Shown: positions 9,697-33,363 of the stretch, piece after piece | Position numbering within the stretch: position 1 is the first letter of the stretch | Layout of the letters: each line of letters opens with the position of its first letter | Assembly (NCBI RefSeq): GCF_001677475.2 | Contig: NZ_CP015229.1 | Source: Escherichia coli | GTDB taxonomy: Bacteria; Pseudomonadota; Gammaproteobacteria; Enterobacterales; Enterobacteriaceae | Direction: 5' to 3' (one strand) | Length of the DNA: 64,000 nucleotides | Made by a program: the position numbers and the translations under genes | Notes under the pieces: generated by a model | Database searches by the model: none | The model's input: the letters and a program-made list of their open reading frames with translations, nothing else | Told to the model about the DNA's origin: nothing

Positions 9697-12348
9697 TTAG
9701 CCGGTATTACGCATACCTGCCGCAATCCCGGCAATAGTGACCATTAACGCCTGCTCGACGCGAGGATCCGGCTCATGGCCTTCTTTTTCTGCCTGGCGGG
9801 AGCGGTGCAGCAACTCGGCCTGCAATACGTTCAGCGGGTCGGTGTAAATATTCCGTAGCTGAATAGACTCTGCAATCCACGGCAGATCGGCCATCAGATG
9901 GGAATCGTTGGCAATCGCCAGCACCACTTTGATGTCTTCTTCTTGCAGATTGCGTAACTCTTTACCTAACGGCCACAGTGCTTTGTCTACCAGACGTTGA
10001 TCATAGTATTCCGCCAGCCACAGGTCTGCTTTGGCGAATACCATTTCCAGCATACCCAGACGCGTCGAGAAGAACGGCCAATCGCGGCACATAGCCTCCA
10101 GCTCGCTCTGTTTGCCGTCTTCGACCACTTTTTGCAGCGCCGTACCTGCACCCAGCCAGGCGGGGAGCATCAGGCGGTTTTGCGTCCAGGCGAAAATCCA
10201 CGGAATGGCGCGTAGTGACTCGACGCCGCCGGTTGGGCGACGTTTCGCCGGACGTGAACCCAACGGCAGTTTGCCCAGTTCTTGTTCCGGCGTAGCGGAG
10301 CGGAAGTAAGGCACAAAATCTTTGTTTTCACGTACGTAGCCACGGTAGAGATCGCAGGAGATGACTGACAGTTCATCCATAATGCGACGCCAGCTCTCTT
10401 TCGGCTCAGGTGGTGGCAGCAGGTTGGCTTCCAGAATCGCCCCGGTGTACAGCGACAGGCTGCTGACGGTGATTTCTGGCAGACCATATTTAAAGCGGAT
10501 CATCTCGCCCTGTTCAGTCACGCGCAGGCCACCTTTCAGGCTTCCTGGCGGTTGTGACAGCAGCGCCGCATGAGCAGGTGCGCCGCCACGACCAATGGAA
10601 CCGCCGCGACCGTGGAACAACGTCAGCTCAATACCCGCTTTTTCGCAGGTTTTGATTAATGCATCCTGTGCCTGATATTGCGCCCAGGAAGCTGCCATCA
10701 CGCCCGCATCTTTTGCTGAGTCGGAATAGCCAATCATCACCATCTGTTTGCCCTGAATCAGGCCGCGATACCAGTCGATATTGAGCAGCTGGGTCATGAC
10801 ATCGTTGGCGTTGTTCAGGTCATCGAGAGTTTCAAACAGCGGAGCAACCGGCATTGCAAACCCGATACCCGCTTCTTTCAGCAGCAGGTGGACAGCCAGC
10901 ACGTCGGACGGCGTTTTCGCCATCGAGATCACGTAGGCGGCAATGGAGCCTTGCGGCGCTTCGGCAATCACCTGGCAGGTATCGAGCACTTCGCGCGTTT
11001 CGGCGCTTGGTTGCCAGTTGCGCGGCAGAAGCGGACGTTTGGAGTTCAGTTCGCGGATCAGGAACGCCTGTTTGTCGGCCTCTGACCAGCTTTCGTAGTC
11101 GCCGATACCGAGGTAGCGGGTCAGCTCGCCCAGCGCTTCGGTATGGCGGGTGCTCTCCTGACGGATATCAATACGGACCAGCGGTACGCCGAAACATTTC
11201 ACGCGGCGCAGGGTGTCGAGCAGATCGCCGTTGGCGATAATACCCATGCCACACGCCTGAAGTGACTGGTAGCAAGCGTAGAGCGGTTCCCACAGTTCTT
11301 CGTTTTGTGTCAGCAGGCCTTCTGGTTTTGGCAGTTCTTCGCCTTTCAGGCGCGCTTCCAGCCATGCCTGTGTCGCCATCAGGCGAGAACGCAGGTTTTT
11401 CATCAGATAGCGATACGGTTCTGCGGCACCTTCTTCGCCAACCAGCGCCAGCAGTTCAGGGGTCGCTTCAACCATCGACAGTTCAGAAACCAGCACCTGA
11501 ATATCTTTCAGGAACAGATCGGTGGCTTTCCAGCGACTGAGCAGCAGGACGTGGCGGGTGATATCGGCAGTGACGTTCGGGTTGCCGTCGCGGTCACCGC
11601 CCATCCACGAGGTAAAACGGACCGGAACAAATTCGACGGGCAGTTTGTAGCCGAGATTCTCTTCCAGTTGTTCGTTCAGTTCGCGCAGGTAATTTGGTAC
11701 GCCTTGCCACAGGCTGTTTTCTACTACGGCAAAGCCCCATTTGGCTTCATCTACCGGGCTTGGACGCAGCTTACGGATTTCATCGGTATGCCATGACTGG
11801 GCGATCAACTGGCGCAGGCGGCGCATCAGCTGGTTGTGTTCGTAGTCAGCGATATCTTTGTTATCGAGCTGTTTTAAACAGGCGTTCACTTCCACCATTT
11901 TGTGGATCAGCGTACGACGGGTAATTTCGGTTGGGTGAGCCGTGAGGACCAGTTCCAGCGACAGCGATTCCACTGCTTTTTTGATGGTGTCTTCGCTCAG
12001 TTCCGGCTGGTTTTTCAGTTTACGCAGGGTGCGGGCGATCACTTCCGGGTTGCTGGCAGCTTCGCCTTTCGGCGAAATGCTGTGGTATTGCTCGGCGGTG
12101 TTGGCCAGGTTCAGGAACTGACTAAACGCACGCGCAACGGGCAGCAGCTCGTCGTTCGACAAATTTTGTAAGGTGGTGAGCAACTCCTGGCGGTTAGCAT
12201 CATTGCCAGCGCGTGAAGATTTGGACAACTTACGGATAGTTTCTACGCGTTCAAGAATGTGTTCTCCCAACGCATCCTTGATGGTTTCTCCCAGCACTTT
12301 GCCGAGCATACTGACATTACTACGCAATGCGGAATATTGTTCGTTCAT
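9697..12348 (-). CDS. ppc: Phosphoenolpyruvate carboxylase
   Basis: 883-aa [32 protein letters not shown].. through C-terminal ..GMRNTG. Confidence 0.97.
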
Positions 12349-12675
12349 ATTACCCCAGACACCCCATCTTATCGTTTGATAGCCCTGTATCCTTCACGTC
12401 GCATTGGCGCGAATATGCTCGGGCTTTGCTTTTCGTCGTCTTTTATAAAGCCACGTAAAAGCGGTGACGTCAAATGCTGCGAAATCGCTTCAGCAAACGA
12501 ATAAATAGCAGGAATTTACGTCATTAAATTCACGACGCTTTAAATAAGCGTAACTTATGGGAATGTTAAAAAATCGCCTCAAGTAACACCAAAGAGTTAT
12601 GAGTTGTAGTTACCATTTGGGCAATCATCTGAGATTGCTGACAAACTCGTTTACGGGTCAGTATGGGCACGGTTT

Positions 12676-12720
12676 TCCCCTCACCCTAACCCTCTCCCCG
12701 AAGGGGCGAGGGGACTGTCC
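12676..12720. repeat. GC-rich palindromic (REP-like) element in the ppc-argE intergenic region
   Basis: Imperfect inverted repeat cccctcaccctaaccctctcccc / ggggcgagggg around a gaag loop. Confidence 0.4.
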
Positions 12721-12760
12721 GTGCGCTTGCATGGCTTTGTCATCAGCCTGATTTGCTTTT

Positions 12761-13912
12761 TTAATGCCAGCAAAAATGATGAATTACCTGGGTTATCAGT
12801 TCGCGGGTGGGCTTGATAAACCGTGTTTCCAGATATTCATCAGGCTGATGAGCCTGATTAATTGAGCCAGGGCCCAGAACCAGCGTCGGGCATAACGTTT
12901 GAATAAACGGCGCTTCGGTACAGTAATTCACCACTTCGGTCTTTGCTCCGAGCAATTTCTCAACTACTTCAACCAGTTGATGATTTGGCGGGCATTCATA
13001 GCCAGGGATCGGCGGATGCAGCTCGTCGACCGTCAGACGACCCGGCCAGCGTTCGCTCACCGGAGCCAGCGCATCGTTGAGTAGGCCATTAAGTTCATTG
13101 AGTGTCATGCCCGGCAGCGGACGAATATCCATATGCAACTCACAGCAAGCGCAGATACGGTTAGCCGCGTCGCCGCCGTGAATATGACCGAGGTTAAGCG
13201 TGGGGTAAGGCACGGTAAATGCCTCATAGTGATAGCGTTCTTTAAGATTGTCACGCAGTTGCAGGATATGACCGATGGCGTCGTGCATCAGTTCGATAGC
13301 GTTAACTCCGCGTGCTGGATCGCTGGAGTGGCCCGACTGGCCCTGAATACGGATGGCGTTAGAGATATGACCTTTATGTGCGCGTACCGGTTGTAGTGAC
13401 GTCGGTTCGCCAATGATGGCGCAATCCGGGCGCAGGGCGGTAGTTTCGGCAAAATAACGCGCTCCGGCCATACTGGTTTCTTCATCGGCAGTCGCCAGAA
13501 TGTAGAGCGGTTTTTTCAGTTTCGTGACGTCGACATCGCGTAGCGCATCAAGGATAAACGCAAAAAAGCCTTTCATGTCGGCGGTGCCTAAGCCGTAAAG
13601 CTTGCCGTCATGCTCCGTCAGTGTAAACGGATCGCGCGTCCAGCGTCCGTCATCAAATGGCACCGTATCGGTATGCCCCGCCAGCAACAAGCCGCCAGCC
13701 CCCTGTCCGGTACTTGCCAGCATATTAAATTTGTTGCGAGTTCCTGGCACAGGCTGCACTTCCACATTGAAGCCTAAATCTTTAAACCAGTCCGCCAGCA
13801 GAGTGATTAAATCTGCATTGCTTTGATCGAGTGCCTCTTCCGTGGCGCTTATTGAAGGTGTGGCAATCAGAGCACGGTAAATCTCGATAAATGGCGGTAA
13901 TTTGTTTTTCAT
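12761..13912 (-). CDS. argE: Acetylornithine deacetylase
   Basis: ORF-track 12761..13951 trimmed to Met at 13912 ([15 protein letters not shown]..), 383 aa. Confidence 0.93.
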
Positions 13913-13927
13913 TGTTGACACACCTCT

Positions 13928-13968
13928 GGTCATGATAGTATCAATATTCATGCAGTATTTATGAATAA
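13928..13968. promoter_or_regulatory. ARG boxes (ArgR operators) in the divergent argE / argCBH control region
   Basis: Tandem AT-rich 18-bp half-palindromes, e.g. ATGAATAAAAATACAC, between the divergent starts. Confidence 0.6.
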
Positions 13969-14065
13969 AAATACACTAACGTTGAGCGTAATAAAACCCA
14001 CCAGCCGTAAGGTGAATGTTTTACGTTTAACCTGGCAACCAGACATAAGAAGGTGAATAGCCCCG

Positions 14066-15070
14066 ATGTTGAATACGCTGATTGTGGGTGCCAGCGGCTA
14101 CGCTGGCGCAGAGCTAGTGACCTATGTAAATCGCCATCCGCATATGAACATAACCGCTTTGACTGTTTCAGCGCAAAGCAATGATGCGGGAAAGTTAATC
14201 TCCGATTTGCATCCGCAGCTAAAAGGCATCGTTGATCTGCCGTTGCAGCCGATGTCGGATATCAGCGAGTTTAGCCCAGGGGTGGACGTGGTGTTTCTCG
14301 CCACCGCCCATGACGTTAGCCACGATTTAGCGCCGCAATTTCTTGAAGCCGGCTGCGTGGTGTTCGACCTTTCCGGCGCGTTTCGTGTTAACGACGCCAC
14401 CTTCTATGAAAAATATTACGGCTTTACCCATCAGTATCCGGAACTGCTGGAACAGGCAGCCTACGGTCTGGCCGAGTGGTGCGGTAATAAATTAAAAGAA
14501 GCGAACTTGATTGCGGTGCCAGGCTGTTATCCGACGGCGGCACAGCTGGCGCTGAAACCGTTGATAGATGCCGATCTTCTTGACCTCAATCAGTGGCCGG
14601 TGATCAACGCCACCAGCGGCGTGAGCGGTGCAGGACGTAAGGCAGCGATTTCAAATAGTTTTTGTGAAGTTAGCCTGCAACCGTATGGCATCTTTACCCA
14701 TCGCCATCAACCAGAGATCGCCACACACCTCGGTGCTGACGTTATCTTCACCCCGCATCTGGGCAATTTCCCGCGCGGCATTCTCGAAACCATTACCTGC
14801 CGCCTGAAATCGGGTGTGACCCAGGCGCAAGTCGCGCAAGTGTTACAGCAGGCGTATGCCCATAAACCGCTGGTGCGGCTGTATGACAAAGGCGTTCCGG
14901 CGCTGAAAAATGTCGTTGGGCTGCCATTTTGCGATATCGGGTTTGCCGTTCAGGGCGAGCATCTGATTATTGTGGCGACCGAAGACAACTTACTGAAAGG
15001 CGCGGCGGCACAAGCGGTACAGTGCGCCAATATTCGTTTCGGCTATGCGGAAACGCAGTCTCTTATTTAA
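14066..15070 (+). CDS. argC: N-acetyl-gamma-glutamyl-phosphate reductase
   Basis: 334-aa [20 protein letters not shown].. Confidence 0.95.
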
Positions 15071-15077
15071 GGGTGCA

Positions 15078-15854
15078 ATGATGAATCCATTAATTATCAA
15101 ACTGGGCGGCGTACTGCTGGATAGTGAAGAGGCGCTGGAACGTCTGTTTAGCGCACTGGTGAATTATCGTGAGTCACATCAGCGTCCGCTGGTGATTGTG
15201 CACGGCGGCGGTTGCGTGGTGGATGAGCTGATGAAAGGGCTGAATCTGCCGGTGAAAAAGAAAAATGGCCTGCGGGTGACGCCTGCTGATCAGATAGACA
15301 TTATCACCGGAGCACTGGCGGGAACGGCAAATAAAACCCTGCTGGCATGGGCGAAGAAACATCAGATTGCGTCCGTAGGTTTGTTTCTCGGTGACGGCGA
15401 CAGCGTCAAAGTGATCCAGCTTGATGAAGAGTTAGGCCATGTTGGACTGGCGCAGCCAGGTTCGCCTAAGCTTATCAACTCCTTGCTGGAGAACGGCTAT
15501 CTGCCGGTGGTCAGCTCCATTGGCGTAACAGACGAAGGGCAACTGATGAACGTCAATGCTGACCAGGCAGCGACGGCGCTGGCGGCAACGCTGGGCGCGG
15601 ATCTGATTTTGCTCTCCGACGTCAGTGGCATTCTCGACGGCAAAGGGCAACGCATTGCCGAAATGACCGCCGCGAAAGCAGAACAACTGATTGAGCAGGG
15701 CATTATTACTGACGGCATGATAGTGAAAGTGAACGCGGCGCTGGATGCTGCGCGCACGTTGGGCCGTCCGGTAGATATCGCCTCCTGGCGTCATGCGGAA
15801 CAGCTTCCGGCACTGTTTAACGGTATGCCGATGGGTACGCGGATTTTAGCTTAA
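15078..15854 (+). CDS. argB: Acetylglutamate kinase
   Basis: ORF-track 15045..15854 trimmed to Met at 15078 ([14 protein letters not shown]..), 258 aa. Confidence 0.93.
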
Positions 15855-15914
15855 GTTTTGTTAGCCGGAGGCGCAGCTTTCCGGCATTGAATTTCAAAAT
15901 AAGGAAACAGAGTT

Positions 15915-17288
15915 ATGGCACTTTGGGGCGGGCGTTTTACCCAGGCAGCAGATCAACGGTTCAAACAATTCAACGACTCACTGCGTTTTGATTACCGTCT
16001 GGCGGAGCAGGATATTGTTGGCTCTGTGGCCTGGTCCAAAGCCCTGGTAACGGTCGGTGTGCTGACCGCAGAAGAACAGGCGCAACTGGAAGAGGCGCTG
16101 AACGTGCTGCTGGAAGATGTTCGCGCCAGGCCACAACAAATCCTTGAAAGCGACGCCGAAGATATCCATAGCTGGGTGGAAGGCAAACTGATCGACAAAG
16201 TGGGTCAGTTAGGCAAAAAACTGCACACCGGGCGTAGCCGTAATGATCAGGTAGCGACTGACCTGAAACTGTGGTGCAAAGATACCGTTAGCGAGTTGCT
16301 GACGGCTAACCGGCAGCTGCAATCGGCGCTGGTGGAAACCGCACAAAACAATCAGGACGCGGTAATGCCAGGTTACACTCACCTGCAACGCGCCCAGCCG
16401 GTGACGTTCGCTCACTGGTGTCTGGCGTATGTTGAGATGCTGGCGCGCGATGAAAGCCGTTTGCAGGATGCGCTTAAGCGTCTGGATGTCAGCCCGCTAG
16501 GCTGTGGCGCGCTGGCGGGAACAGCCTATGAAATCGACCGTGAACAGTTAGCAGGCTGGCTGGGCTTTGCTTCGGCGACCCGTAACAGTCTCGACAGCGT
16601 TTCTGACCGTGACCACGTGCTGGAACTGCTTTCTGCTGCCGCTATCGGCATGGTGCATCTGTCGCGTTTTGCTGAAGACCTGATCTTCTTTAACACCGGC
16701 GAGGCGGGGTTTGTGGAGCTTTCTGACCGCGTGACTTCCGGTTCATCATTAATGCCGCAGAAGAAAAATCCGGATGCGCTGGAGCTGATTCGCGGTAAAT
16801 GCGGTCGGGTGCAGGGTGCGTTAACCGGCATGATGATGACGCTGAAAGGTTTGCCGCTGGCTTACAACAAAGATATGCAGGAAGACAAAGAAGGTCTGTT
16901 CGACGCGCTCGATACCTGGCTGGACTGCCTGCATATGGCGGCGCTGGTGCTGGACGGCATTCAGGTGAAACGTCCGCGTTGCCAGGAAGCGGCTCAGCAG
17001 GGTTACGCCAACGCCACTGAACTGGCGGATTACCTGGTGGCGAAAGGCGTACCGTTCCGCGAGGCGCACCATATTGTTGGTGAAGCGGTGGTGGAAGCCA
17101 TTCGTCAGGGCAAACCGCTGGAAGATCTGCCACTCAGTGAGTTGCAGAAATTCAGTCAGGTGATTGACGAAGATGTCTATCCGATTCTGTCGCTGCAATC
17201 GTGCCTCGACAAGCGTGCGGCAAAAGGCGGCGTCTCACCGCAGCAGGTGGCGCAGGCGATTGCTTTTGCGCAGGCGCGGTTGGGGTAA
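15915..17288 (+). CDS. argH: Argininosuccinate lyase
   Basis: 457-aa [19 protein letters not shown].. Confidence 0.96.
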
Positions 17289-17311
17289 GAACATTTATAT
17301 GTACAAATTTG

Positions 17312-17340
17312 AGCCTGGCTTATCGCCGGGCTTTTTTATG
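17312..17340 (+). terminator. Intrinsic terminator of argCBH
   Basis: Hairpin gcctggcttatcgccgggc followed by TTTTTT. Confidence 0.6.
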
Positions 17341-17342
17341 GC

Positions 17343-17459
17343 AAAAAAAAGCGGATCCTGGAGATCCGCAAAAGTTCACGTTGGCTTTAGTTATTCGAGT
17401 TGAGAAACTCTCGAAACGGGCAGTGACTTCAAGGGTTAAAAGAGGTGCCGCTCCGTTTC
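17343..17459 (-). ncRNA. oxyS: OxyS small regulatory RNA (about 109 nt plus U-tail)
   Basis: Minus strand reads GAAACGGAGCGGCACCTCTTTTAACCCTTGAAGTCACTGCCCGTTTCGAG..GCGGATCTCCAGGATCCGC then a U-run; divergent from oxyR. Confidence 0.93.
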
Positions 17460-17554
17460 TGTGAGCAATTATCAGTCAGAATGCTTGATAGGGATAATCG
17501 TTCGTTGCTATGCTACCTATCGCCGCGAACTATCGTGGCAATGGAGGATGGATA
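17460..17554. promoter_or_regulatory. oxyS/oxyR divergent promoter region with OxyR binding site
   Basis: Position between the oxyS 5' end and the oxyR start; exact operator not delimited. Confidence 0.55.
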
Positions 17555-18472
17555 ATGAATATTCGTGATCTTGAGTACCTGGTGGCATTGGCCGAACACC
17601 GCCATTTTCGGCGTGCGGCAGATTCCTGCCACGTTAGCCAGCCGACGCTTAGCGGCCAAATTCGTAAGCTGGAAGATGAGCTGGGCGTGATGTTGCTGGA
17701 GCGGACCAGCCGTAAAGTGTTGTTCACCCAGGCGGGAATGCTGCTGGTGGATCAGGCGCGTACCGTGCTGCGTGAGGTGAAAGTCCTTAAAGAGATGGCA
17801 AGCCAGCAGGGCGAGACGATGTCCGGACCGCTGCATATTGGTTTGATTCCTACGGTTGGACCGTACCTGCTACCGCATATTATCCCGATGCTGCACCAGA
17901 CATTTCCAAAGCTGGAAATGTATCTGCATGAAGCACAGACCCACCAGTTACTGGCGCAACTGGACAGCGGCAAACTCGATTGCGTGATCCTCGCGCTGGT
18001 GAAAGAGAGCGAAGCATTCATTGAAGTGCCGTTGTTTGATGAGCCAATGTTGCTGGCTATCTATGAAGATCACCCGTGGGCGAACCGCGAATGCGTACCG
18101 ATGGCCGATCTGGCAGGGGAAAAACTGCTGATGCTGGAAGATGGTCACTGTTTGCGCGATCAGGCAATGGGTTTCTGTTTTGAAGCCGGGGCGGATGAAG
18201 ATACACACTTCCGCGCGACCAGCCTGGAGACGCTGCGCAACATGGTGGCGGCAGGTAGCGGGATCACTTTACTGCCAGCGCTGGCTGTGCCGCCGGAGCG
18301 CAAACGCGATGGGGTTGTTTATCTGCCGTGCATTAAGCCGGAACCACGCCGCACTATTGGCCTGGTTTATCGTCCTGGCTCACCGCTGCGCAGCCGCTAT
18401 GAGCAGCTGGCAGAGGCCATCCGCGCAAGAATGGATGGCCATTTCGATAAAGTGTTAAAACAGGCGGTTTAA
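17555..18472 (+). CDS. oxyR: LysR-family peroxide-sensing regulator OxyR
   Basis: ORF-track 17510..18472 trimmed to Met at 17555 ([23 protein letters not shown]..), 305 aa. Confidence 0.95.
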
Positions 18473-19855
18473 ACCGTTTAACGCAGCTACCCGATAGGCT
18501 TCCGCCATGGTCGGGTAGTTAAAGGTGGTGTTGACGAAGTACTCAATAGTGTTGCCGCCACCTTTCTGTTCCATAATCGCCTGACCGATATGAATAATTT
18601 CGGCAGCGCGCTCGCCAAAGCAGTGAATACCCAGAATCTCTTTTGTTTCCCGATGGAACAAAATTTTCAGCGTGCCCACGTTCATGCCGACGATTTGTGC
18701 ACGTGCCAGATGTTTAAACTGGGCGCGGCCCACTTCATATGGCACTTTCATCGCGGTCAGCTGCTGTTCGGTTTTGCCCACAGAGCTGATTTCCGGGATG
18801 GTGTAAATGCCGGTAGGGATATCTTCAATCAGATGCGCGGTGGCTTCGCCTTTTACCAGCGCCTGCGCGGCAATGCGCCCCTGGTCATAGGCCGCTGATG
18901 CCAGGCTCGGATAACCAATCACGTCGCCCACCGCGTAAACGTGCGGCTGTGCGGTCTGATACATGCTGTTGACCTTCAGCTGTCCGCGACTGTCAGTTTC
19001 CAGCCCAATGTTCTGTAACGCCAGCGAATCGGTATTACCGGTACGACCGTTGGCATAGAGCAGGCAGTCAGCTTTCAGTTTTTTACCCGACTTCAGATGC
19101 ATGATCACACCGTCGTCACAGCCTTCGATCTTCTCGTACTCTTCGTTGTGACGAATCACTACGCCACTGTTCCAGAAGTGATAGGAGAGAGAATCTGACA
19201 TCTCTTGATCGAGAAATGCCAGCAGGCGATCGCGGGTGTTGATCAGATCCACTTTTACATCCATACCGCGGAAGATCGACGCATATTCACAGCCGATCAC
19301 TCCAGCACCATAGATAAGTACATGGCGCGGTTCGTGGTGCATGCTGAGAATTGAGTCGCTGTCGTAAATGCGTGGATGGGTGAAATCAACATCTGTTGGA
19401 TGATATGGACGAGAGCCGCAGGCAATAACAAATTTTTCAGCGGTTAGCGTTTCAACGCTGCCGTCCGGGCAATCCAGCGCCAACGTATGCTCGTCAACAA
19501 AGCGAGCGTTCCCCTGCAATATTTCACAGTGATTACGTTCGTAAAATCCCTGACGCATGCGCGTTTGTTGATTAATCACGTTATCGGCATGGTTAAGGAT
19601 ATCGGCAAAAGAAGAGCGGAGCAGTCGGGAATGGTCGCTGTATAGTGGGTTTTGATTGAATTCTATAATGCGGCTGACGGCGTGACGGAGAGCTTTCGAC
19701 GGGATGGTGCCCCAGTGGGTGCAACCGCCGCCAACATTTTGATAACGCTCGATAACTGCGACGCGCGCACCTTGCTTAACCAGGCCCATTGCAGCGCCTT
19801 CGCCGCCGGGGCCGGAACCTATTACTATGGCATCGTAATCGTAGGAATGTGGCAT
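18455..19855 (-). CDS. sthA: Soluble pyridine nucleotide transhydrogenase
   Basis: 466-aa [26 protein letters not shown].. (FAD/NAD Rossmann GxGxxG); convergent 18-bp overlap with oxyR. Confidence 0.95.
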
Positions 19856-20184
19856 GGTAGGGCTTACCTGTTCTTATACATAAAAGCAACAGAATGGTAA
19901 CATTTTATCGCGGGTAAGCCAATTGATCCCCGTCATTAATCTGGCTATAGCGTGAGCGGCCTTTGCTTTGTCTGCCCCCTTCTTAACCCATTTATTTACT
20001 ATTAATCGCTTTTTCTTATGGCTGATAGTTTTATCTTGCCGAAGCGTGCTTTTTTGTTATTGTCTTTATGAAATATTCTTATAAAACAAACATATAAATA
20101 TTTTATATTGATGAGTTATTTGTATTTATACCATCAATAAAATCCGTTAATTAGCCTGTTTATAAGTGAATAAAGGAATAGCCG

Positions 20185-21351
20185 ATGATCGAACACTATA
20201 TTCGAGGGTTTGAGGAAGAACTGCGTGAGATCCGCCATCAGATCCACGAAAACCCGGAGCTGGGATTACAAGAATTTAAAACCAGTGCTTTGGTGGCGGA
20301 AAAGCTGCGTCAGTGGGGCTATGAAGTAGAGCAAGGACTGGCGACGACGGGGATAGTGGCCACGTTAAAAGTGGGCGACGGAGAGAAAAGTATTGGCCTG
20401 CGGGCGGATATGGATGCGCTGCCAATTTATGAAAATAGTGGCAAGCCCTGGGCCAGTAAACATCCTGGTTTAATGCACGCCTGCGGGCATGACGGGCATA
20501 CCACCATACTGCTGGGGGCCGCGCGTTATTTTGCCGAAACCCGCCGTTTTAACGGCACGTTACGTCTTATCTTCCAGCCTGCGGAAGAGATGATTAACGG
20601 CGGTGAGATCATGGTTAAAGAGGGGCTTTTTGATCATTTCCCCTGCGATGTCATTTTCGGCATGCATAACATGCCCGGTCTGCCGGTGGGTAAGTTTTAT
20701 TTCCAGCCAGGGGAACTGATGGCGTCAATGGATCAGTTCCATATTACAGTTCGTGGTTGTGGCGGACACGGTGCGATCCCGCACAAAGCCATCGATCCGG
20801 TGCTGGTTGCCGCACATATCACCACCGCATTACAAAGCATTGTGTCGCGCAATGTCGATCCGCTGGAAGCGGCGGTAATTACCGTCGGCAGCATTGTTGC
20901 GGGTGAGGCGGCTAACGTCATTCCTGACAGTGCTGAGATGAAAATCAGCGTCCGCTCTCTTAGCCGCGATACCCGACAACTTCTTCTGACCCGTATTCCT
21001 GCTCTGGCACAAACCCAGGCTGCCAGCTTTGGTGCTACGGCTGAGGTTACGCATGTTAACGGTACACCGGTATTAGTGAATGACGAGGAGATGGCGCGCT
21101 TCGCCTGGCAGGTGGCGTGTAAAACGTTTGGTGAAGATCGGGCCGAGTTTGGCATCAAGCCCCTGATGGGCAGTGAGGATTTCTCTTTCATGCTGGAAGC
21201 CCAGCCGAAAGGCGCTTTTTTGCTGTTCGGTAATGGCGATGTCGGGGAAGGTTCCTGCATGGTGCATAACCCGGGTTACGACTTCAACGATGCAAGTCTG
21301 GTCCCGGCATGCAGCTACTGGGGCGCACTGGTAGAAGCTTGGCTGCAATAA
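20185..21351 (+). CDS. M20D-family metal-dependent amidohydrolase (hippurate hydrolase / N-acyl-amino-acid deacylase-like)
   Basis: 388-aa ORF; HACGHDGH metal-binding signature; GGAGG-like RBS (aaaggaa) upstream; no signal peptide. Confidence 0.8.
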   Translation: MIEHYIRGFEEELREIRHQIHENPELGLQEFKTSALVAEKLRQWGYEVEQGLATTGIVATLKVGDGEKSIGLRADMDALPIYENSGKPWASKHPGLMHACGHDGHTTILLGAARYFAETRRFNGTLRLIFQPAEEMINGGEIMVKEGLFDHFPCDVIFGMHNMPGLPVGKFYFQPGELMASMDQFHITVRGCGGHGAIPHKAIDPVLVAAHITTALQSIVSRNVDPLEAAVITVGSIVAGEAANVIPDSAEMKISVRSLSRDTRQLLLTRIPALAQTQAASFGATAEVTHVNGTPVLVNDEEMARFAWQVACKTFGEDRAEFGIKPLMGSEDFSFMLEAQPKGAFLLFGNGDVGEGSCMVHNPGYDFNDASLVPACSYWGALVEAWLQ

Positions 21352-21393
21352 ATAAAACAACACACAACAACACTTTTTGGCAAGGAACATGGA

Positions 21394-22710
21394 ATGACGG
21401 CGATCGTAAATGAAACCGTGAGTGTGAAGAAAAAGCCCAGCGGTAAGCGGGTGATTTTTGCTTCGGCGTTTGGCAATGCGCTCGAATTTTTTGATTTTGG
21501 CGTTTACAACTTTTTTGTGGTCTATATCAGTACGCTTTTCTTCCCACCCAGCGCTGATCACAATGTCGCGCTGTTACTGGCATTTGCAACATTTGGCGTG
21601 AGTTTTTTTATGCGCCCGCTTGGTGGAATTATCGTCGGGGCCTGGGCCGATCGCTTCGGACGCAAACCCGCGATGGTGTTCACCATTGCCCTGATGAGCC
21701 TCGGTACACTGATGATCGGCATCGCACCGACGTATGAAACGGCGGGCTATTGGGGAACCGCGACGCTGGTGCTGGCGCGTCTAATTCAGGGCGTTGCGGC
21801 AGGAGGCGAAGTCGGTGCCTCAATGTCTTTGTTGGTTGAATCAGCTCCGGCAAATCGTCGCGGCTTTTACAGCAGTTGGTCACTGGCGACTCAAGGCCTG
21901 GCAACAACCTTTGGTGGTGTTGTCGCTTTAGGTTTAAGCGCATGGCTGCCCTTTGCGACAGGTTCAGAAACCGTAATGGCTGAATGGGGCTGGCGTGTGC
22001 CATTTTTTATTGGCGTGTTATTAGCACCTATCGGTTGCTGGTTGCGTCTGAGCCTGGAAAATGACGTACCTGAGCTAGTGCGCAATAAAAAAGCTGCTAC
22101 CAGCGAAAGCGCGTTCTCTCTGCTCCTGCAACATAAGGCGACTATCGTTAACGGCGTTTTACTCGCTATTGGTAGCACGGTCGCAACCTATATCTCCCTC
22201 TTTTATTACGGCACCTGGGCGGCGAAGTATCTGGCGATGCCTCAACATTATTCTCATGCAGCGATGTTACTGGCGGGCGTTATTACGTTTGTGGGTGCGC
22301 TGCTTGTGGGGATGTTGTGCGATTCGGTCGGGCGTAAAAAGCTGATTTTAATCTCCCGTGTGATGGTGCTGATCTGTAGCTGGCCGTCATTCTGGCTGTT
22401 GGTGAATTACCCAAGCCCTGGCATGTTGCTGACGGTGGTTTTCGTGATGGTCAGCTTTACCACGCTTGGCGGTGTGCCGGTAATGTTGCTGATCTCTGAA
22501 CTGTTGCCGAAACGGATTCGGGCATTGGGTTTTGCGCTGGTTTATAGCATTGGTGTGGCAATCTTTGGCGGTTTTGCTCAATATTTCGCTACGCAATCCA
22601 TCGTGTTGCTGGATAGTTTGACAGCTCCGGCGTGGTATTTGGGTGGAGGCACGTTGCTGTCGATGCTGGCGTTGTTGTACGTAAAAGAACCGGCCAAAGA
22701 ATTGCAGTAA
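21394..22710 (+). CDS. Major facilitator superfamily permease, metabolite:H+ symporter (MHS) type
   Basis: 438-aa hydrophobic ORF; [13 protein letters not shown] (GxxxDRxGRK) motif; 42 bp after the amidohydrolase, same strand. Confidence 0.8.
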
Positions 22711-22816
22711 ATATGTTTTATTGCGTTACCGTTCATTCACAATACTGGAGCAATCCAGTATGTTCATTCTCTGGTATAGTGCCAGCAGTACTTTTGGCAA
22801 GGATTCAGACATCGTG

Positions 22817-23464
22817 ATGGGCGTAAGAGCGCAACAAAAAGAAAAAACCCGCCGTTCGCTGGTGGAAGCCGCATTTAGCCAATTAAGTGCTGAACGCAGC
22901 TTCGCCAGCCTGAGTTTGCGTGAAGTGGCGCGTGAAGCGGGCATTGCTCCCACCTCTTTTTACCGGCATTTCCGCGACGTAGACGAACTTGGTCTGACCA
23001 TGGTTGATGAGAGCGGTTTGATGCTGCGCCAACTCATGCGCCAGGCGCGTCAGCGTATTGCCAAAGGCGGGAGTGTGATCCGTACCTCGGTCTCCACATT
23101 TATGGAGTTCATCGGTAATAATCCGAACGCCTTCCGGTTATTATTGCGGGAACGCTCCGGCACTTCCGCTGCGTTTCGTGCCGCCGTTGCGCGTGAAATT
23201 CAGCACTTCATTGCGGAACTTGCGGACTATCTGGAACTCGAAAACCACATGCCTCGTGCGTTTACTGAAGCGCAAGCCGAAGCCATGGTGACGATTGTCT
23301 TCAGTGCGGGTGCCGAGGCGTTGGACGTCGGCGTCGAACAACGTCGGCAATTAGAAGAGCGACTGGTACTGCAACTGCGAATGATTTCGAAAGGGGCTTA
23401 TTACTGGTATCGCCGTGAACAAGAGAAAACCGCAACTATTCCGGGAAATGTGAAGGACGAGTAA
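22817..23464 (+). CDS. fabR: TetR-family repressor of unsaturated fatty acid biosynthesis
   Basis: ORF-track 22721..23464; start placed at ATG 22817 ([15 protein letters not shown].., 215 aa); alternative in-frame starts at 22721 and 22760 cannot be excluded. Confidence 0.85.
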
Positions 23465-23823
23465 TGAAACAAGCAAATCAAGATAGAGGTACGCTGCTGC
23501 TGGCGTTGGTTGCTGGCTTATCGATTAATGGTACTTTCGCAGCTCTGTTTAGCTCCATAGTGCCATTTTCTGTATTCCCGATTATTTCCCTGGTGCTGAC
23601 GGTTTACTGCCTGCATCAACGTTATCTTAATCGCACTATGCCGGTAGGCTTGCCGGGTCTGGCAGCTGCCTGTTTTATTCTCGGCGTACTGCTGTACAGC
23701 ACGGTAGTTCGTGCGGAATATCCGGATATCGGCTCTAACTTCTTCCCGGCAGTACTCTCCGTCATTATGGTGTTCTGGATTGGCGCGAAGATGCGTAACC
23801 GTAAGCAGGAAGTTGCTGAGTAA
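23464..23823 (+). CDS. yijD: Small inner-membrane protein
   Basis: 119-aa hydrophobic ORF; start overlaps the fabR stop (TAATG). Confidence 0.85.
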
Positions 23824-23833
23824 TCGGTATCAT

Positions 23834-23860
23834 GCCGGATGCTGGCGCATCCGGCATGGG
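23834..23860. terminator. Palindrome between convergent yijD and trmA (likely bidirectional terminator / REP-like)
   Basis: tgccggatgctggcgcatccggca inverted repeat. Confidence 0.45.
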
Positions 23861-23862
23861 TT

Positions 23863-24963
23863 TTACTTCGCGGTCAGTAATACGCCGCACTCCATATGGT
23901 GCGTGTAGGGGAACTGATCAAACAGAGCCAGACGTTCGACCTTGTGCGTCTGGCTTAATGTTTCCAGATTCTTGCATAACGTTTCCGGATTGCAGGAGAT
24001 ATACAGAATACGTGGATACGCCTGCACCATTTTCTCGGTTTCACTGTCCAGACCGCTGCGCGGTGGGTCGACAAAAATGGTTTCGCACTGATAACTCTTT
24101 AAGTCGATCCCTTGCAGGCGGTTAAACTCGCGCACACCATTCATCGCCTGAGTAAATTCTTCTGCCGCCATACGAATAATTTGTACGTTATCAATATGGT
24201 TAGCGGCAATGTTGTATTGCGCAGCAGCAACCGACGGCTTAGCGATTTCGGTGGCTAATACCCGATCAAAATTGCGCGCCAGTGCTAATGAAAAGTTACC
24301 GTTGCCGCAGTACAGCTCCAGTAAATCGCCTTTTGAGCCTTTGGTTACGTCCAGCGCCCATTCCAGCATCTGAATATTCATCGCCGCGTTCGGCTGGGTA
24401 AAGCTGTTTTCTACCTGACGGTAGATCATCTCTTTCCCTGCGACCGGCAGACGTTCATCGATGTAATCTTGATCCAGCTCGATTTTGGTTTTCGTTGCCC
24501 GACCAATCAGATGCACATTCAGATTCTGCGCTCGCAGTGCATCGCGCAGGGCTTCCGCTTCCTGACGCCACTCATCATCCAGCTTTTTATGGTACAGCAG
24601 GGAAACCACCGCCTGATTACTCAACGTAGTGAGGTAATCAATCTGGAACAACTTGTGGCGCAGAACGGGATTATTACGCACACCCGCAATCATCGCCGTC
24701 ATCAACTGGTTGATGAGTTCACTGGCAGCGGGGAAGCTATCCACGCGGATGCGGCTTTTGGTTTGTTGATCGAAAATGATGTGGTACAGGTCATCGCCAT
24801 CGTGCCAGATGCGGAACTCCGCGCGCATCCGGTAATGACTGACCGGCGAGCGAAACACTTCCGGAACCAGGTCAGAAAACGGTGCCATCATACTTTGCAA
24901 ACGTACCACTTTTTCGGCTAACTGCGCTTCATACTGTTCTGTTGGAAGGTGTTCGGGGGTCAT
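23863..24963 (-). CDS. trmA: tRNA (uracil54-C5)-methyltransferase
   Basis: 366-aa [26 protein letters not shown].. Confidence 0.95.
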
Positions 24964-25091
24964 GATGTATCCTGAAAAATTAAAGTACGCGGCGATTGTA
25001 GGGATTGCTCATCAGATGTCCAGATCTTGATGAATTCCTATTTGTGAGCTACGTCTGGACAGTAACTTGTTACAACCTGTAGCATCCACTT

Positions 25092-25331
25092 GCCGGTCCT
25101 GTGAGTTAATAGGGAATCCAGTGCGAATCTGGAGCTGACGCGCAGCGGTAAGGAAAGGTGCGATGATCGCGTTATGCGGACACTGCCATTCGGTGGGAAG
25201 TCATCATCTCTTAGTATCTTAGATACCCCTCCAAGCCCGAAGACCTGCCGGCCAACGTCGCATCTGGTTCTCATCATCGCGTAATATTGATGAAACCTGC
25301 GGCATCCTTCTTCTATTGTGGATGCTTTACA
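25092..25331 (+). promoter_or_regulatory. Adenosylcobalamin riboswitch in the btuB 5' leader
   Basis: About 240-nt leader GCCGGTCCTGTGAGTTAATAGGGAATCCAGTGCGAATCTGGAGCTGAC.. with B12-box-like CCCGAAGACCTGCCGGCC. Confidence 0.88.
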
Positions 25332-27176
25332 ATGATTAAAAAAGCTTCGCTGCTGACGGCGTGTTCTGTCACAGCCTTTTCCGCTTGGGCACAGGATACC
25401 AGCCCGGATACTCTCGTTGTTACTGCTAACCGTTTTGAACAGCCGCGCAGCACTGTGCTTGCACCAACCACCGTTGTGACGCGTCAGGATATCGACCGCT
25501 GGCAGTCGACCTCGGTCAATGATGTGCTGCGCCGTCTCCCTGGTGTGGATATCACCCAAAACGGCGGTTCAGGTCAGCTCTCATCTATTTTTATTCGCGG
25601 TACAAATGCCAGTCATGTGTTGGTGTTAATTGATGGCGTCCGCCTGAATCTGGCGGGGGTGAGTGGTTCTGCTGACCTTAGTCAGTTCCCTATTGCGCTT
25701 GTCCAGCGTGTTGAATATATCCGTGGGCCGCGCTCCGCTGTTTATGGTTCAGATGCAATAGGCGGGGTCGTGAATATCATCACGACGCGCGATCACCCCG
25801 GAACGGAAATTTCAGCAGGGTGGGGAAGCAATAGCTATCAGAACTATGATGTCTCTACACAGCAACAACTGGGGGATAAGACACGGGTAACGCTGTTGGG
25901 CGATTATGCCCATACTCATGGTTATGATGTTGTCGCCTATGGTAATACCGGAACGCAAGCGCAGCCAGATAACGATGGTTTTTTAAGTAAAACGCTTTAT
26001 GGCGCGCTGGAGCATAATTTTACTGATGTCTGGAGCGGCTTTGTGCGCGGCTATGGCTATGATAATCGTACTAATTATGACGCATATTATTCTCCCGGCT
26101 CGCCGCTGGTCGATACACGTAAACTCTATAGCCAAAGTTGGGATGCCGGACTGCGCTATAACGGCGAACTGATTAAATCACAACTCATTACCAGCTACAG
26201 CCATAGCAAAGATTACAACTACGATCCGCATTATGGTCGTTATGATTCGTCCGCGACGCTCGATGAGATGAAACAGTACACCGTCCAGTGGGCAAACAAT
26301 GTCATCGTTGGTCACGGTAGTATTGGTGCGGGTGTCGACTGGCAGAAACAGACTACGACGCCGGGTACAGGTTATGTTGAGGATGGATATGATCAACGTA
26401 ATACCGGCATCTATCTGACCGGGCTGCAACAAGTCGGCGATTTTACCTTTGAAGGCGCAGCACGCAGCGACGATAACTCACAGTTTGGTCGTCATGGAAC
26501 CTGGCAAACCAGCGTCGGTTGGGAATTCATCGAAGGTTATCGGTTTATCGCTTCTTATGGTACGTCGTACAAGGCACCTAATCTTGGGCAACTCTACGGC
26601 TTCTACGGTAATCCGGATCTGAACCCTGAGAAAAGCAAACAGTGGGAAGGGGCGTTTGAAGGCTTAACCGCTGGAGTGAACTGGCGTATTTCCGGATACC
26701 GTAACGATGTTAGTGACTTGATCGATTACGATGATCACACCCTCAAATACTACAATGAAGGGAAAGCGCGAATTAAGGGCGTCGAGGCGACCGCCAATTT
26801 TGATACCGGACCGCTGACGCATACGGTGAGTTATGATTATGTCGATGCGCGTAACGCGATTACCGACACGCCGTTGCTACGTCGCGCTAAACAGCAGGTG
26901 AAATATCAGCTCGACTGGCAACTGTATGACTTCGACTGGGGTATTACTTATCAGTATTTAGGCACTCGCTATGATAAGGATTACTCATCTTATCCTTATC
27001 AAACCGTTAAAATGGGCGGTGTGAGCTTGTGGGATCTTGCGGTTGCGTATCCGGTCACCTCTCACCTGACAGTTCGTGGTAAAATAGCCAACCTGTTCGA
27101 CAAAGATTATGAGACAGTCTATGGCTACCAAACTGCAGGACGGGAATACACCTTGTCTGGCAGCTACACCTTCTGA
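25332..27176 (+). CDS. btuB: TonB-dependent outer-membrane vitamin B12 receptor
   Basis: ORF-track 25287..27176 trimmed to Met at 25332 ([35 protein letters not shown]..), 614 aa; TonB box; C-terminal aromatic residue. Confidence 0.95.
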
Positions 27177-27978
27177 ACCACGTCCCACCGTGCTGGTGTT
27201 TGACTCCGGCGTCGGTGGGTTGTCGGTCTATGACGAGATCCGGCATCTCTTACCGGATCTCCATTACATTTATGCTTTCGATAACGTCGCTTTCCCGTAT
27301 GGCGAAAAAAGCGAAGAGTTTATTGTTGAGCGAGTGGTGGCAATTGTCACCGCGGTGCAAGAACGTTATCCCCTTGCGCTGGCTGTGGTCGCTTGCAACA
27401 CTGCCAGTACCGTTTCACTTCCTGCATTACGCGAAAAGTTCGACTTCCCGGTTGTTGGTGTCGTGCCGGCGATTAAACCTGCTGCACGTCTGACGGCAAA
27501 TGGCATTGTCGGATTACTGGCAACCCGCGGAACAGTTAAACGTTCTTATACTCATGAGCTGATCGCGCGTTTCGCTAATGAATGCCAGATAGAAATGCTG
27601 GGCTCGGCAGAGATGGTTGAGTTGGCTGAAGCGAAGCTGCATGGCGAAGATGTTTCTCTGGATGCACTAAAACGTATCCTACGCCCGTGGTTAAGAATGA
27701 AAGAGCCGCCAGATACCGTTGTATTGGGTTGCACCCATTTCCCTCTACTACAAGAAGAACTGTTACAAGTGCTGCCAGAGGGAACCCGGCTGGTGGATTC
27801 TGGCGCAGCGATTGCTCGCCGAACGGCTTGGTTGTTAGAACATGAAGCCCCGGATGCAAAATCTGCCGATGCGAATATTGCCTTTTGTATGGCAATGACG
27901 CCAGAAGCTGAACAATTATTGCCCGTTTTACAGCGTTACGGCTTCGAAACGCTCGAAAAACTGGCAGTTTTAGGCTGA
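27121..27978 (+). CDS. murI: Glutamate racemase
   Basis: ORF-track 27109..27978 trimmed to ATG 27121 ([16 protein letters not shown]..), 285 aa; overlaps btuB 3' end by 56 bp. Confidence 0.93.
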
Positions 27979-28023
27979 TTTGGTTGAATGTTGCGCGGTC
28001 AGAAAATTATTTTAAATTTCCTC

Positions 28024-28060
28024 TTGTCAGGCCGGAATAACTCCCTATAATGCGCCACCA
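28024..28060 (+). promoter_or_regulatory. rrnB P1 promoter
   Basis: -35 TTGTCA (28024-28029), 16-bp spacer, -10 TATAAT (28046-28051), GC-rich discriminator; AT-rich UP element 27990-28020. Confidence 0.9.
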
Positions 28061-28142
28061 CTGACACGGAACAACGGCAAACACGCCGCCGGGTCAGCGG
28101 GGTTCTCCTGAGAATTCCGGCAGAGAAAGCAAAAATAAATGC

Positions 28143-28178
28143 TTGACTCTGTAGCGGGAAAGCGTATTATGCACACCC
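28143..28178 (+). promoter_or_regulatory. rrnB P2 promoter
   Basis: -35 TTGACT (28143-28148), 16-bp spacer, -10 TATTAT (28165-28170). Confidence 0.88.
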
Positions 28179-28209
28179 CGCGCCGCTGAGAAAAAGCGAA
28201 GCGGCACTG

Positions 28210-28221
28210 CTCTTTAACAAT
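28210..28221 (+). promoter_or_regulatory. boxA antitermination element of the rrn leader
   Basis: TGCTCTTTAACAA motif in the leader. Confidence 0.8.
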
Positions 28222-28351
28222 TTATCAGACAATCTGTGTGGGCACTCGAAGATACGGATTCTTAACGTCGCAAGACGAAAAATGAATACCAAGTCTCAAG
28301 AGTGAACACGTAATTCATTACGAAGTTTAATTCTTTGAGCATCAAACTTTT

Positions 28352-29893
<1,542 letters not shown>

Positions 29894-29978
29894 CCTTAAA
29901 GAACTGTGCTTTGCAGTGCTCACACAGATTGTCTGATAGAAAGTGAAAAGCAAGGCGTCTTGCGAAGCAGACTGATAC

Positions 29979-30054
29979 GTCCCCTTCGTCTAGAGGCCCA
30001 GGACACCGCCCTTTCACGGCGGTAACAGGGGTTCGAATCCCCTAGGGGACGCCA
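29979..30054 (+). tRNA. gltT: tRNA-Glu (UUC) in the 16S-23S spacer
   Basis: GTCCCCTTCGTCTAGAGGCCCAGGACACCGCCCTTTCACGGCGGTAACAGGGGTTCGAATCCCCTAGGGGACGCCA. Confidence 0.98.
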
Positions 30055-30247
30055 CTTGCTGGTTTGTGAGTGAAAGTCACCTGCCTTAATATCTCAAAAC
30101 TCATCTTCGGGTGACGTTTGAGATATTTGCTCTTTAAAAATCTGGATCAAGCTGAAAATTGAAACACTGAACAACGAAAGTTGTTCGTGAGTCTCTCAAA
30201 TTTTCGCAACACGATGATGAATCGAAAGAAACATCTTCGGGTTGTGA

Positions 30248-33150
<2,903 letters not shown>

Positions 33151-33243
33151 ACAACGCCGAAGCTGTTTTGGCGGATTGAGAGAAGATTTTCAGCCTGATA
33201 CAGATTAAATCAGAACGCAGAAGCGGTCTGATAAAACAGAATT

Positions 33244-33363
33244 TGCCTGGCGGCCGTAGCGCGGTGGTCCCACCTGACCCCATGCCGAACTCAGAAGTGA
33301 AACGCCGTAGCGCCGATGGTAGTGTGGGGTCTCCCCATGCGAGAGTAGGGAACTGCCAGGCAT
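33244..33363 (+). rRNA. rrfB: 5S ribosomal RNA
   Basis: TGCCTGGCGGCCGTAGCGCGGTGGTCCCACCTGACCCCATGCCGAACTCAG..GGAACTGCCAGGCAT; 120 nt. Confidence 0.99.

Follow-up and report, generated by a model that had tools for sequence, protein, structure and literature searches.

A two-gene amidohydrolase-permease module between sthA and fabR: probable ancestry in the genus Escherichia and loss from K-12-type E. coli

The sthA and fabR genes of Escherichia coli are separated by only 330 bp in K-12-type genomes, yet in other strains two additional genes lie between them. This raises the questions of whether the pair was gained by some lineages or lost by others, and of what it may do. We analyzed a window of 64,000 nucleotides from E. 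coli (contig NZ_CP015229.1, assembly GCF_001677475.2) in which the longer interval is present. A preliminary description of this DNA had put the K-12 spacing at a few hundred base pairs and proposed that both genes are missing there, and K-12-type genomes bear it out on both counts. The two genes are already annotated in RefSeq and form an ordinary two-gene operon, which a 2010 study listed as CFT073 c4924-c4926 (PMC2831201); what the present analysis usefully adds is the scar of the deletion and an ancestry that spans the genus. Our preferred explanation, which taken as a whole we hold to be likely, is that of a catabolic operon ancestral to the genus, active in the uptake and cleavage of compounds of the N-acyl-amino-acid type, which descended vertically and was removed from K-12-type genomes by a single deletion. 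The interval is organized as follows (positions in the window).

18455-19855, minus strand: sthA (ORF list).
19856-19974, no strand assigned: sthA-proximal intergenic DNA common to K-12-type genomes (blastn against the K-12-type genome L001).
19975-22675, plus strand: 2,701-bp stretch not present in K-12-type genomes, which have 73 bp of unrelated DNA in its place.
19975-20184, plus strand: module-specific AT-rich leader, presumed promoter/silencing region (GC windows, allele comparison).
20078-20106, plus strand: match to a predicted TosR (PapB-family) motif (motif from PMC5956150).
20185-21351, plus strand: gene for an M20D-type metallo-amidohydrolase of 388 aa (RefSeq 'M20 aminoacylase family protein'; CFT073 c4924).
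21394-22710, plus strand: gene for a 12-segment MFS permease of 438 aa (RefSeq 'citrate-proton symporter').
22676-22710, plus strand: final 11 codons of the permease gene with its stop, a gene remnant in K-12-type genomes (35/35 bases identical to L001).
22711-22813, plus strand: fabR upstream region, shared with K-12 (blastn; Salmonella homology resumes at about 22733).

Both genes are intact and lie on the same strand 42 bp apart, exactly as first described. An AAGGA Shine-Dalgarno sequence stands 8 nt before the amidohydrolase ATG, and another precedes the permease ATG; the start of fabR in RefSeq homologues is GTG 22814, a codon ahead of the ATG at 22817. A scan of the 42-bp spacer detected no terminator-like site, and the two genes would be co-transcribed. 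Promoter and terminator scans of the interval gave no more matches than shuffled sequence does: a simple search for the sigma-70 consensus had no match upstream of the amidohydrolase gene, leader included, and its only sigma-70-like match in the interval (22736-22764) lies upstream of fabR. An Rfam scan of 19500-23200 returned nothing at E <= 0.1. The exact 12-mer TTTTGGCAAGGA occurs upstream of both the permease and the fabR starts, each copy overlapping a ribosome-binding site; with about 0.4 such pairs expected per 3.7 kb, we take it as chance.

Base composition is that of the neighborhood, the module genes having the same GC content as their flanks (0.49-0.57); around the leader, 400-nt windows fall to 0.37-0.39, against about 0.53 in the genes. 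The ORF list contains no integrase or IS and no dedicated regulator adjoining the module, there is no tRNA within 12000-30000, and flanking direct repeats are no longer than chance-level 12-mers. The hallmarks of a mobile genomic island (mobility genes, tRNA target, direct repeats, deviant composition) are thus lacking, and on integrase, IS, tRNA and repeats the preliminary description had said the same.

The product of the first gene belongs to the M20D family, as had been proposed from its metal-binding signature. It matches TIGR01891 with 358.9 bits for a cut-off of 153.75 (residues 13-372 on positions 1-363 of a 366-position model), and Pfam places Peptidase_M20 at residues 72-384 (E = 2.9e-44) and M20_dimer, the lid domain inserted in the M20 catalytic domain, at residues 184-279 (E = 1.7e-12). 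The signature HACGHDGH occupies residues 98-105, and the motifs MHACGHD, FQPAEE, FGMHN, GSEDF and HNP align with those of YxeP, ILL2, AgaA and 4EWT; the metal-binding residues among them are presumably those known from structures 1YSJ, 1XMB and 4EWT. The N-terminus is not hydrophobic (maximal hydropathy -0.95 over N-terminal windows of 19 aa), in agreement with the earlier claim that a signal peptide is missing, and the enzyme is, judging from its sequence, cytoplasmic. Its best solved relatives, matched over nearly the full length with 229-241 bits, are Bacillus subtilis YxeP (1YSJ), Arabidopsis ILL2 (1XMB) and a Corynebacterium N-alpha-acyl-glutamine aminoacylase (6SLF). The metal and catalytic motifs of all three align with the amidohydrolase, and all three hydrolyze N-acyl-L-amino acids; they are too distant for specificity to be transferred, and they reside in other genomic contexts, none being paired with an MHS permease. 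Together with 4EWT, they make the four closest solved relatives N-acyl-amino-acid or peptide amidohydrolases. Only the broad TIGR01891 is passed: the equivalog models CpsA and DoeB2 give 334.7 bits for a cut-off of 500 and 324.7 for 550, and no model of that level names the enzyme.

The second product has 12 hydrophobic segments, MFS motif A at residue 82 and matches to MFS_1 (E = 3e-27) and Sugar_tr (E = 1.7e-22), which makes it an MFS member. Its initial assignment to the MHS family stands only in part. The metabolite/H+ symporter family TIGR00883 is indeed its best match, with an end-to-end alignment (residues 27-416 on positions 1-392 of 400), and a GxxxDRxGRK-type motif is present; the score, however, is 323.2 bits, below the cut-off of 443.45, and the motif is the general MFS motif A, found between TM2 and TM3 and not specific to MHS proteins. 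This points to a divergent MHS relative rather than a certified member. The second-best NCBIfam match is the TcuC model NF011656 (287.3 bits, cut-off 445). Altogether, the best-scoring transporter models, TcuC/CitA, KgtP, ProP and ShiA, align end to end and share the 12 segments and motif A, but they all score below their cut-offs (287-323 versus 443-550), and the permease is an orthologue of none of them.

Is the association of the two genes meaningful? The taxonomic spread of homologues was derived from a species-representative scan and a cluster look-up. The nearest relatives of the module outside Escherichia are in Betaproteobacteria, the closest enzyme being 63% identical and the next 57%. 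An MHS-type permease gene lies directly downstream of an M20D gene in nine loci, from Burkholderia, Paraburkholderia, Pseudomonas and others, and several of these carry a divergent LysR regulator. The uncharacterized LysR-M20D-MHS clusters of Burkholderia and Paraburkholderia, and the M20D-MHS-amidase-IclR clusters of Pseudomonas, have the gene order and families of the module, with enzymes 51-57% and permeases 36-45% identical to its own; unlike the Escherichia module, they possess a regulator. In Silvimonas and Bordetella, the sources of the two closest enzyme homologues outside Escherichia, no MHS gene adjoins the enzyme gene, so that the pairing is frequent, not obligatory. Neighbors of the closest non-Escherichia homologues (LysR, IclR, amidase, ACC deaminase, serine ammonia-lyase, prenyltransferase) form no consistent pathway across loci.

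The gene pairing suggests uptake followed by deconjugation, a reading that is strengthened because the same pair recurs in distant Proteobacteria. The permease would work by proton symport and import an amide that bears a carboxylate, an N-acyl-L-amino acid being the most probable case. The cytoplasmic metal-dependent M20D enzyme would then cleave the amide bond, so that an amino acid is set free together with an organic acid; both this substrate class and the inward direction of transport are predictions. The literature searched contained no experiments on either protein, and nothing was found there under the locus tags Z5522, Z5523 and ECs4892. The closest analogy in E. coli is abgABT, in which an amide-linked carboxylate is likewise imported and cleaved in the cytoplasm by an M20D hydrolase, AbgAB. 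That system, devoted to p-aminobenzoyl-glutamate utilization, comprises AbgAB, the importer AbgT and the LysR regulator AbgR, and under laboratory conditions it is cryptic or weakly expressed, in which respect we liken the module to it. The resemblance does not extend to the components: the Abg-type structure 3IO1 is only distant from the amidohydrolase (124.8 bits, versus 241 for YxeP), the abg transporter is of the AbgT family and not of the MFS, and no regulator adjoins the module.

Existing annotations suggest more specific substrates. The pair could be a dedicated hippurate system, the enzyme being a hippuricase (EC 3.5.1.32) and the permease importing hippurate. The gene is called 'Hippuricase' or 'hippurate hydrolase' in source annotations, a label that comes from Campylobacter jejuni HipO, a member of the same M20D subfamily; hippurate, moreover, occurs abundantly in urine, and uropathogenic B2 strains commonly carry the module. 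The KEGG assignment K01451 (hipO) is reported in PMC4819403. Nevertheless, E. coli is used as the negative control in hydrolysis assays: strain NCTC 10418 is negative (PMC4867780), and the same paper cites Perry et al. 1998 as having reported a negative result for 42 E. coli strains. With a module prevalence of about 28%, it is very unlikely that 42 strains would include no carrier, although silencing in vitro is another possible explanation. As no equivalog-level match supports the label either, CpsA and DoeB2 being below their cut-offs, we consider a hippurate system unlikely.

An enzyme acting as a di- or oligopeptide carboxypeptidase, of the Sulfolobus CpsA or S. aureus M20D dipeptidase type, in a pair that scavenges small peptides, seems to us quite unlikely; it could account for the CpsA score and for the 221 bits obtained with the S. 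aureus M20 peptidase 4EWT, but the former is below the 500-bit cut-off, and the substrates known for MHS-type permeases (TC 2.A.1.6) are organic acids and osmolytes rather than peptides. Very unlikely, finally, is a citrate or tricarballylate/H+ symporter functionally unrelated to the enzyme. This would agree with the RefSeq product name, with the rank of TcuC among NCBIfam matches and with the label 'citrate metabolism' given to c4924-c4926 in the 2010 comparative study (PMC2831201). The TcuC score (287 for a cut-off of 445) tells against it, as do the ORF list, in which no citrate-utilization enzymes occur nearby, and the recurrence of the enzyme-permease pair, in unchanged order, among distant Proteobacteria, which argues for a shared substrate. 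The 'hippuricase' and 'citrate-proton symporter' labels are backed by neither experiment nor a score above threshold, and we advise against propagating them.

Uptake and cleavage of an N-acyl-amino-acid-type substrate is thus the function that we favor, and the history of the operon can be read from its alleles. When 5,426 complete E. coli genomes were screened, 1,505 (about 28%) possessed the module and 72% did not; one and the same scar allele is shared by 3,918 of the 5,426, and three, for example RM13322, H30, have neither allele. Homology with the K-12-type genome L001 (97.5-98.8% identity up to 19974) stops at 19974 and resumes at 22676, placing the true breakpoints at 19974/19975 and 22675/22676. 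The similar octamers at 19901-19908 and 22723-22730, which had been suggested to mark the indel point, both reside inside DNA shared with K-12 and are to be discarded. The scar retains the last 35 bp of the permease gene (11 codons and stop) without a single difference from the window. Such a tail is a regular part of proteins of this family: KEPAKELQ* has KETAGRAID*, DETGGRELS* and DETFQKALD* as its aligned counterparts in homologues 36-45% identical, and it corresponds in length and motif to the C-termini of the Burkholderia and Paraburkholderia proteins. Because a piece intrinsic to the permease family is kept in the scar, the K-12 state is a deletion. The 73 bp that replace the module were compared with the module and with the Salmonella spacer as candidate sources, and the similarities lacked significance (the score was attained by 17, 6 and 5 of 300 shuffles); against Salmonella, only 7-10-mers match. 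Since no origin was found for this segment, the deletion was not a clean excision.

Other species indicate how old the operon is. We compared E. albertii, E. ruysiae and E. whittamii and found identical synteny (oxyR-sthA-M20-MHS-fabR-yijD) in all three. The Salmonella sthA-fabR spacer, 198 bp long, contains neither the module nor a remnant, the 35-bp permease tail included; in the sthA-proximal part it can be aligned only with about 19863-19905 (spacer positions 8-50). Between E. coli and E. albertii, dS amounts to 0.31 in the M20 gene and 0.57-0.67 in the permease gene, and the module values bracket those of the flanks (0.48-0.49 for sthA, 0.24-0.28 for fabR). Identity matrices of the module genes follow the species order, and the leader (19975-20184) is conserved from E. 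coli to E. albertii in the four module-bearing alleles compared. All seven module alleles examined are intact, and both genes are under strong purifying selection, with dN/dS of 0.03-0.09 (0.03-0.09 for the amidohydrolase, 0.03-0.06 for the permease).

A loss specific to the K-12 lineage had been raised beforehand as one of two possibilities, and the remnant, the presence of the module in three other Escherichia species and the absence of both from Salmonella now bear it out. An ancestor of the genus Escherichia would have received the operon in its sthA-fabR spacer once it had diverged from Salmonella, and inheritance would have been vertical ever since; one E. coli lineage would then have dropped 2.7 kb in a single deletion, giving the scar allele carried by K-12, now the majority state. 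The converse, a recent islet acquired horizontally by the lineage of the window, with the K-12 spacer as the ancestral empty site, is most improbable: the absence of the module from Salmonella and most E. coli genomes, the betaproteobacterial affinities and the AT-rich leader might suggest it, but K-12 keeps a family-conserved permease end that Salmonella does not have, the same site is occupied at species-level divergence in the three other Escherichia species, GC content is fully ameliorated, and mobility genes, tRNA and flanking repeats are wanting.

In CFT073, overproduction of the PapB-family regulator TosR raises c4924 by log2 6.6, and a predicted TosR motif, CTTATAAAACAAATATATAAATATTTTAT, lies 78 nt upstream of this gene (PMC5956150, supplement file 3). 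The same 29-mer is found in the window at 20078-20106, with one mismatch and again 78 nt before the ATG. In strain Sakai, ECs4893, which judged by gene order is probably the permease gene, increases 2.09-fold at a growth transition (PMC2241611), an observation to which we attach no weight. The AT-rich leader is probably silenced by nucleoid proteins under laboratory conditions.

For E. coli, these results mean that K-12 represents the derived state, the direction of change being fixed by the 35-bp remnant and four sister or outgroup species. The locus is a textbook case in which just two alleles account for the whole species, and the operon belongs to the small metabolic differences, outside islands, that set B2/E strains apart from A/B1 strains. 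Given its strong response to a uropathogen-specific regulator, identifying the substrate could reveal a trait of host-metabolite utilization. One tentative and rather unlikely reading is that the operon is a normally silenced scavenger of host-made amide conjugates that abound in urine and gut, such as phenylacetylglutamine, hippurate or N-acetyl amino acids, under the control of H-NS and PapB-family regulators. If this were true, it would provide the B2 and E lineages, uropathogens included, with an extra nitrogen or carbon source, and a single ancient deletion would partly set the A/B1-type commensal lineages metabolically apart.

The 17.5-25 kb portion of the window carries oxyR, sthA, two plus-strand ORFs, fabR, yijD and trmA, in that order. 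The two ORFs form a module composed of an M20D amidohydrolase gene (the enzyme gene) and a permease gene, laid out as follows:

18455-19855, minus strand, sthA
20185-21351, plus strand, enzyme gene (388 aa)
21394-22710, plus strand, permease gene (438 aa)

The ORF check found the preliminary description exact in its coordinates, lengths and 42-bp spacing of two same-strand genes. The HACGHDGH signature that it had noted lies at enzyme residues 98-105, a GxxxDRxGRK-type motif lies at permease residue 82, and the enzyme N-terminus is not hydrophobic, in keeping with the proposed lack of a signal peptide. Both genes have an AAGGA about 8 nt upstream of the ATG, and no terminator-like site was found on scanning the 42-bp spacer. 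The interval had also been described as free of integrase, IS, tRNA and long repeats; indeed, it contains no integrase or IS among its ORFs, no tRNA or Rfam match was found in it, and no repeats above chance flank the module. An exact 12-mer, TTTTGGCAAGGA, occurs at 21375-21386 and 22792-22803, about 10 nt upstream of the permease and fabR starts; the chance expectation for such a pair is about 0.4, and both copies overlap ribosome-binding sites. The fabR start itself varies by annotation: GTG at 22814 in RefSeq (216 aa), ATG at 22817 in the preliminary description, and ATG at 22760 in older records (234 aa).

In K-12-type genomes the module is absent and sthA and fabR are 330 bp apart, which agrees with the few hundred base pairs stated initially. 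Homology between the window and K-12 extends up to 19974 and resumes at 22676. In place of 19975-22675, a K-12-type locus (L001, 2076-2148) has 73 bp that resemble neither strand of the module nor the Salmonella spacer to a significant degree. The octamers earlier proposed as junctions (19901-19908 and 22723-22730) must be discarded, as both reside within DNA common to K-12. The breakpoint at 22676 falls within the permease ORF, of which 35 bp of the 3' end remain in K-12: TGTACGTAAAAGAACCGGCCAAAGAATTGCAGTAA, 35/35 identical, corresponds to the last 11 codons and stop of the permease. This tail is not accidental spacer DNA, since the same C-terminal length and motif are present in homologues of only 36-45% identity (Paraburkholderia, Burkholderia and others), whose aligned termini read MKETAGRAID, DETGGRELS and DETFQKALD, each followed by the stop.

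The sthA-fabR spacer of Salmonella is 198 bp long, aligns with Escherichia only beside sthA (about 19863-19905) and beside fabR (from about 22733), and contains neither the module nor the 35-bp tail. The order oxyR-sthA-M20-MHS-fabR-yijD is conserved in E. albertii, E. ruysiae and E. whittamii. Between E. coli and E. albertii, the enzyme gene has a dS of 0.31 and the permease gene one of 0.57-0.67, a range taken to bracket sthA (0.48-0.49) and fabR (0.24-0.28). The gene identity matrices reproduce the species order, and the GC content of the module genes equals that of the flanks. Together, the K-12 tail, the empty Salmonella spacer, the same-site modules, the divergence and the GC content point to an ancestral entry and a later deletion. 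The module would have entered the spacer in the Escherichia ancestor and been passed on vertically, and the K-12-type state would have arisen later by deletion of 19975-22675; we consider this account very likely. Lineage-specific loss in K-12, one of the options raised initially, is thus supported by the remnant and by the module at the same site in three other species.

When the interval was compared against 5,426 complete E. coli genomes, the whole of it was found in 1,505, including O157:H7, O145:H28, O25:H4 ST131, an ST95-named strain and the probiotic strain A0 34/86; the remainder match the flanks only. A 106-nt probe spanning the K-12 junction detected the scar structure in 3,918 genomes. 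Module and scar together account for 5,423 of the 5,426, and the locus is therefore effectively biallelic. The three others have neither module nor standard scar; one of them, NZ_CP050498.1 (match H30, RM13322), matches on the sthA side only. Two module copies are on plasmid-typed records, including NZ_CP170376.1 (match H58, 169 kb), which are probably chromosome fragments from hybrid assemblies. In ST131 strain CU568-3 (O25:H4; L088, 1342-2039), an IS1A lies between sthA and the amidohydrolase gene, within the module leader. The best identity of complete RefSeq E. coli genomes to the window is at most 98.8% over 12 kb including an rRNA operon (26000-38000), and at most 97.2% for the module itself, which places the window in an E. 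coli lineage that has been sampled only sparsely. Proteins identical to the enzyme and the permease are in GenBank as ANO91921.1 and ANO91922.1 (E. coli).

Both module genes have a dN/dS of 0.03-0.09 in every pairwise comparison, and the seven alleles inspected, which represent four species, all have an intact module. The sole deviation is an E. albertii enzyme shorter by 3 codons (NBRC 107761; L004, 7156-7158), where W386 has become TAG, the rest of the gene being intact. Comparison of the window with L002, L088 and L003 showed that nucleotide differences in the permease gene reach 8.4% among E. coli lineages (O157 versus ST131) and amount to 6.8% between the window and O157 (dS 0.27), while sthA beside these divergent alleles is 98.2-99.8% identical; old haplotypes, a weak constraint on codons, or introgression may explain this.

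On sequence criteria, the enzyme belongs securely to the M20D amidohydrolase subfamily, as initially proposed: it scores 358.9 bits against TIGR01891 (cut-off 153.75), and Pfam reports Peptidase_M20 with M20_dimer inserted. The nearest solved structures (221-241 bits) are Bacillus subtilis YxeP, Arabidopsis ILL2, a Corynebacterium N-alpha-acyl-glutamine aminoacylase and an S. aureus M20 peptidase, and MHACGHD, FQPAEE, FGMHN and HNP of the enzyme align with motifs of all four. The equivalog-level models CpsA and DoeB2 both remain under cut-off, so no substrate can be transferred. Outside Escherichia, the closest enzymes are from Silvimonas (63% identity), Bordetella and Paraburkholderia (57%). 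The permease is an MFS protein by profile match, with 12 hydrophobic segments. Its proposed MHS membership is upheld in part: TIGR00883 (metabolite/H+ symporter) is the top model, with an end-to-end alignment, yet the score of 323 bits is under its cut-off of 443, and GxxxDRxGRK is MFS motif A in general rather than an MHS marker. As the TcuC model also falls short (287 bits versus 445), the RefSeq product name 'citrate-proton symporter' (loci L002, L003 and L088) has no threshold support.

An MHS-type permease lies directly 3' of an M20D gene in nine loci (Burkholderia, Paraburkholderia, Pseudomonas and others), several of which also carry a divergently oriented LysR regulator; in Pseudomonas, the genes that come next encode an amidase and an IclR regulator. 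The two nearest enzyme homologues have no permease neighbor, so the pairing is common, not universal. Its recurrence supports a shared substrate and is, besides family membership, the main evidence for a model in which the permease would import a substrate that the cytoplasmic enzyme then deacylates, a general scheme that we hold to be reasonably probable.

In CFT073, oxyR is c4922 and the enzyme gene is c4924 ('putative hippuricase'), which was among the genes most strongly induced by overproduction of TosR, a PapB-family protein (log2 fold change 6.6; PMC5956150). The TosR motif predicted 78 nt upstream of c4924 (PMC5956150 supplement) matches the window 29-mer at 20078-20106 with one mismatch and is equally far from the start codon, which ties that study to this locus. 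TosR was argued to act on AT-rich DNA by antagonizing H-NS and Lrp (PMC5956150); as the 210-bp module leader is AT-rich (GC about 37-39%), silence under laboratory conditions is plausible. E. coli serves as negative control in hippurate hydrolysis assays (PMC4867780), and 42 E. coli strains were hippurate-negative (Perry et al. 1998, as cited in PMC4867780). With the module in about 28% of genomes, this speaks either against a hippuricase function or for a module that is silent in vitro. KEGG hipO (K01451) marks a uropathogenic E. coli clade associated with necrotizing enterocolitis (PMC4819403). A 2010 synteny study listed c4924-c4926, uncharacterized and named 'citrate metabolism', in F11, 536, UTI89 and E2348/69 (PMC2831201); it scored O157 negative, contrary to our finding, probably owing to its all-three-genes rule.

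The module is therefore real, and its initial interpretation was essentially right. It is an ordinary accessory operon of familiar families, already annotated and catalogued. What the analysis contributes is the direction of change, with loss in K-12 shown by the 35-bp gene remnant, together with the exact breakpoints, the strict two-allele structure within the species, and an ancestry that spans the genus, Salmonella being the empty outgroup.
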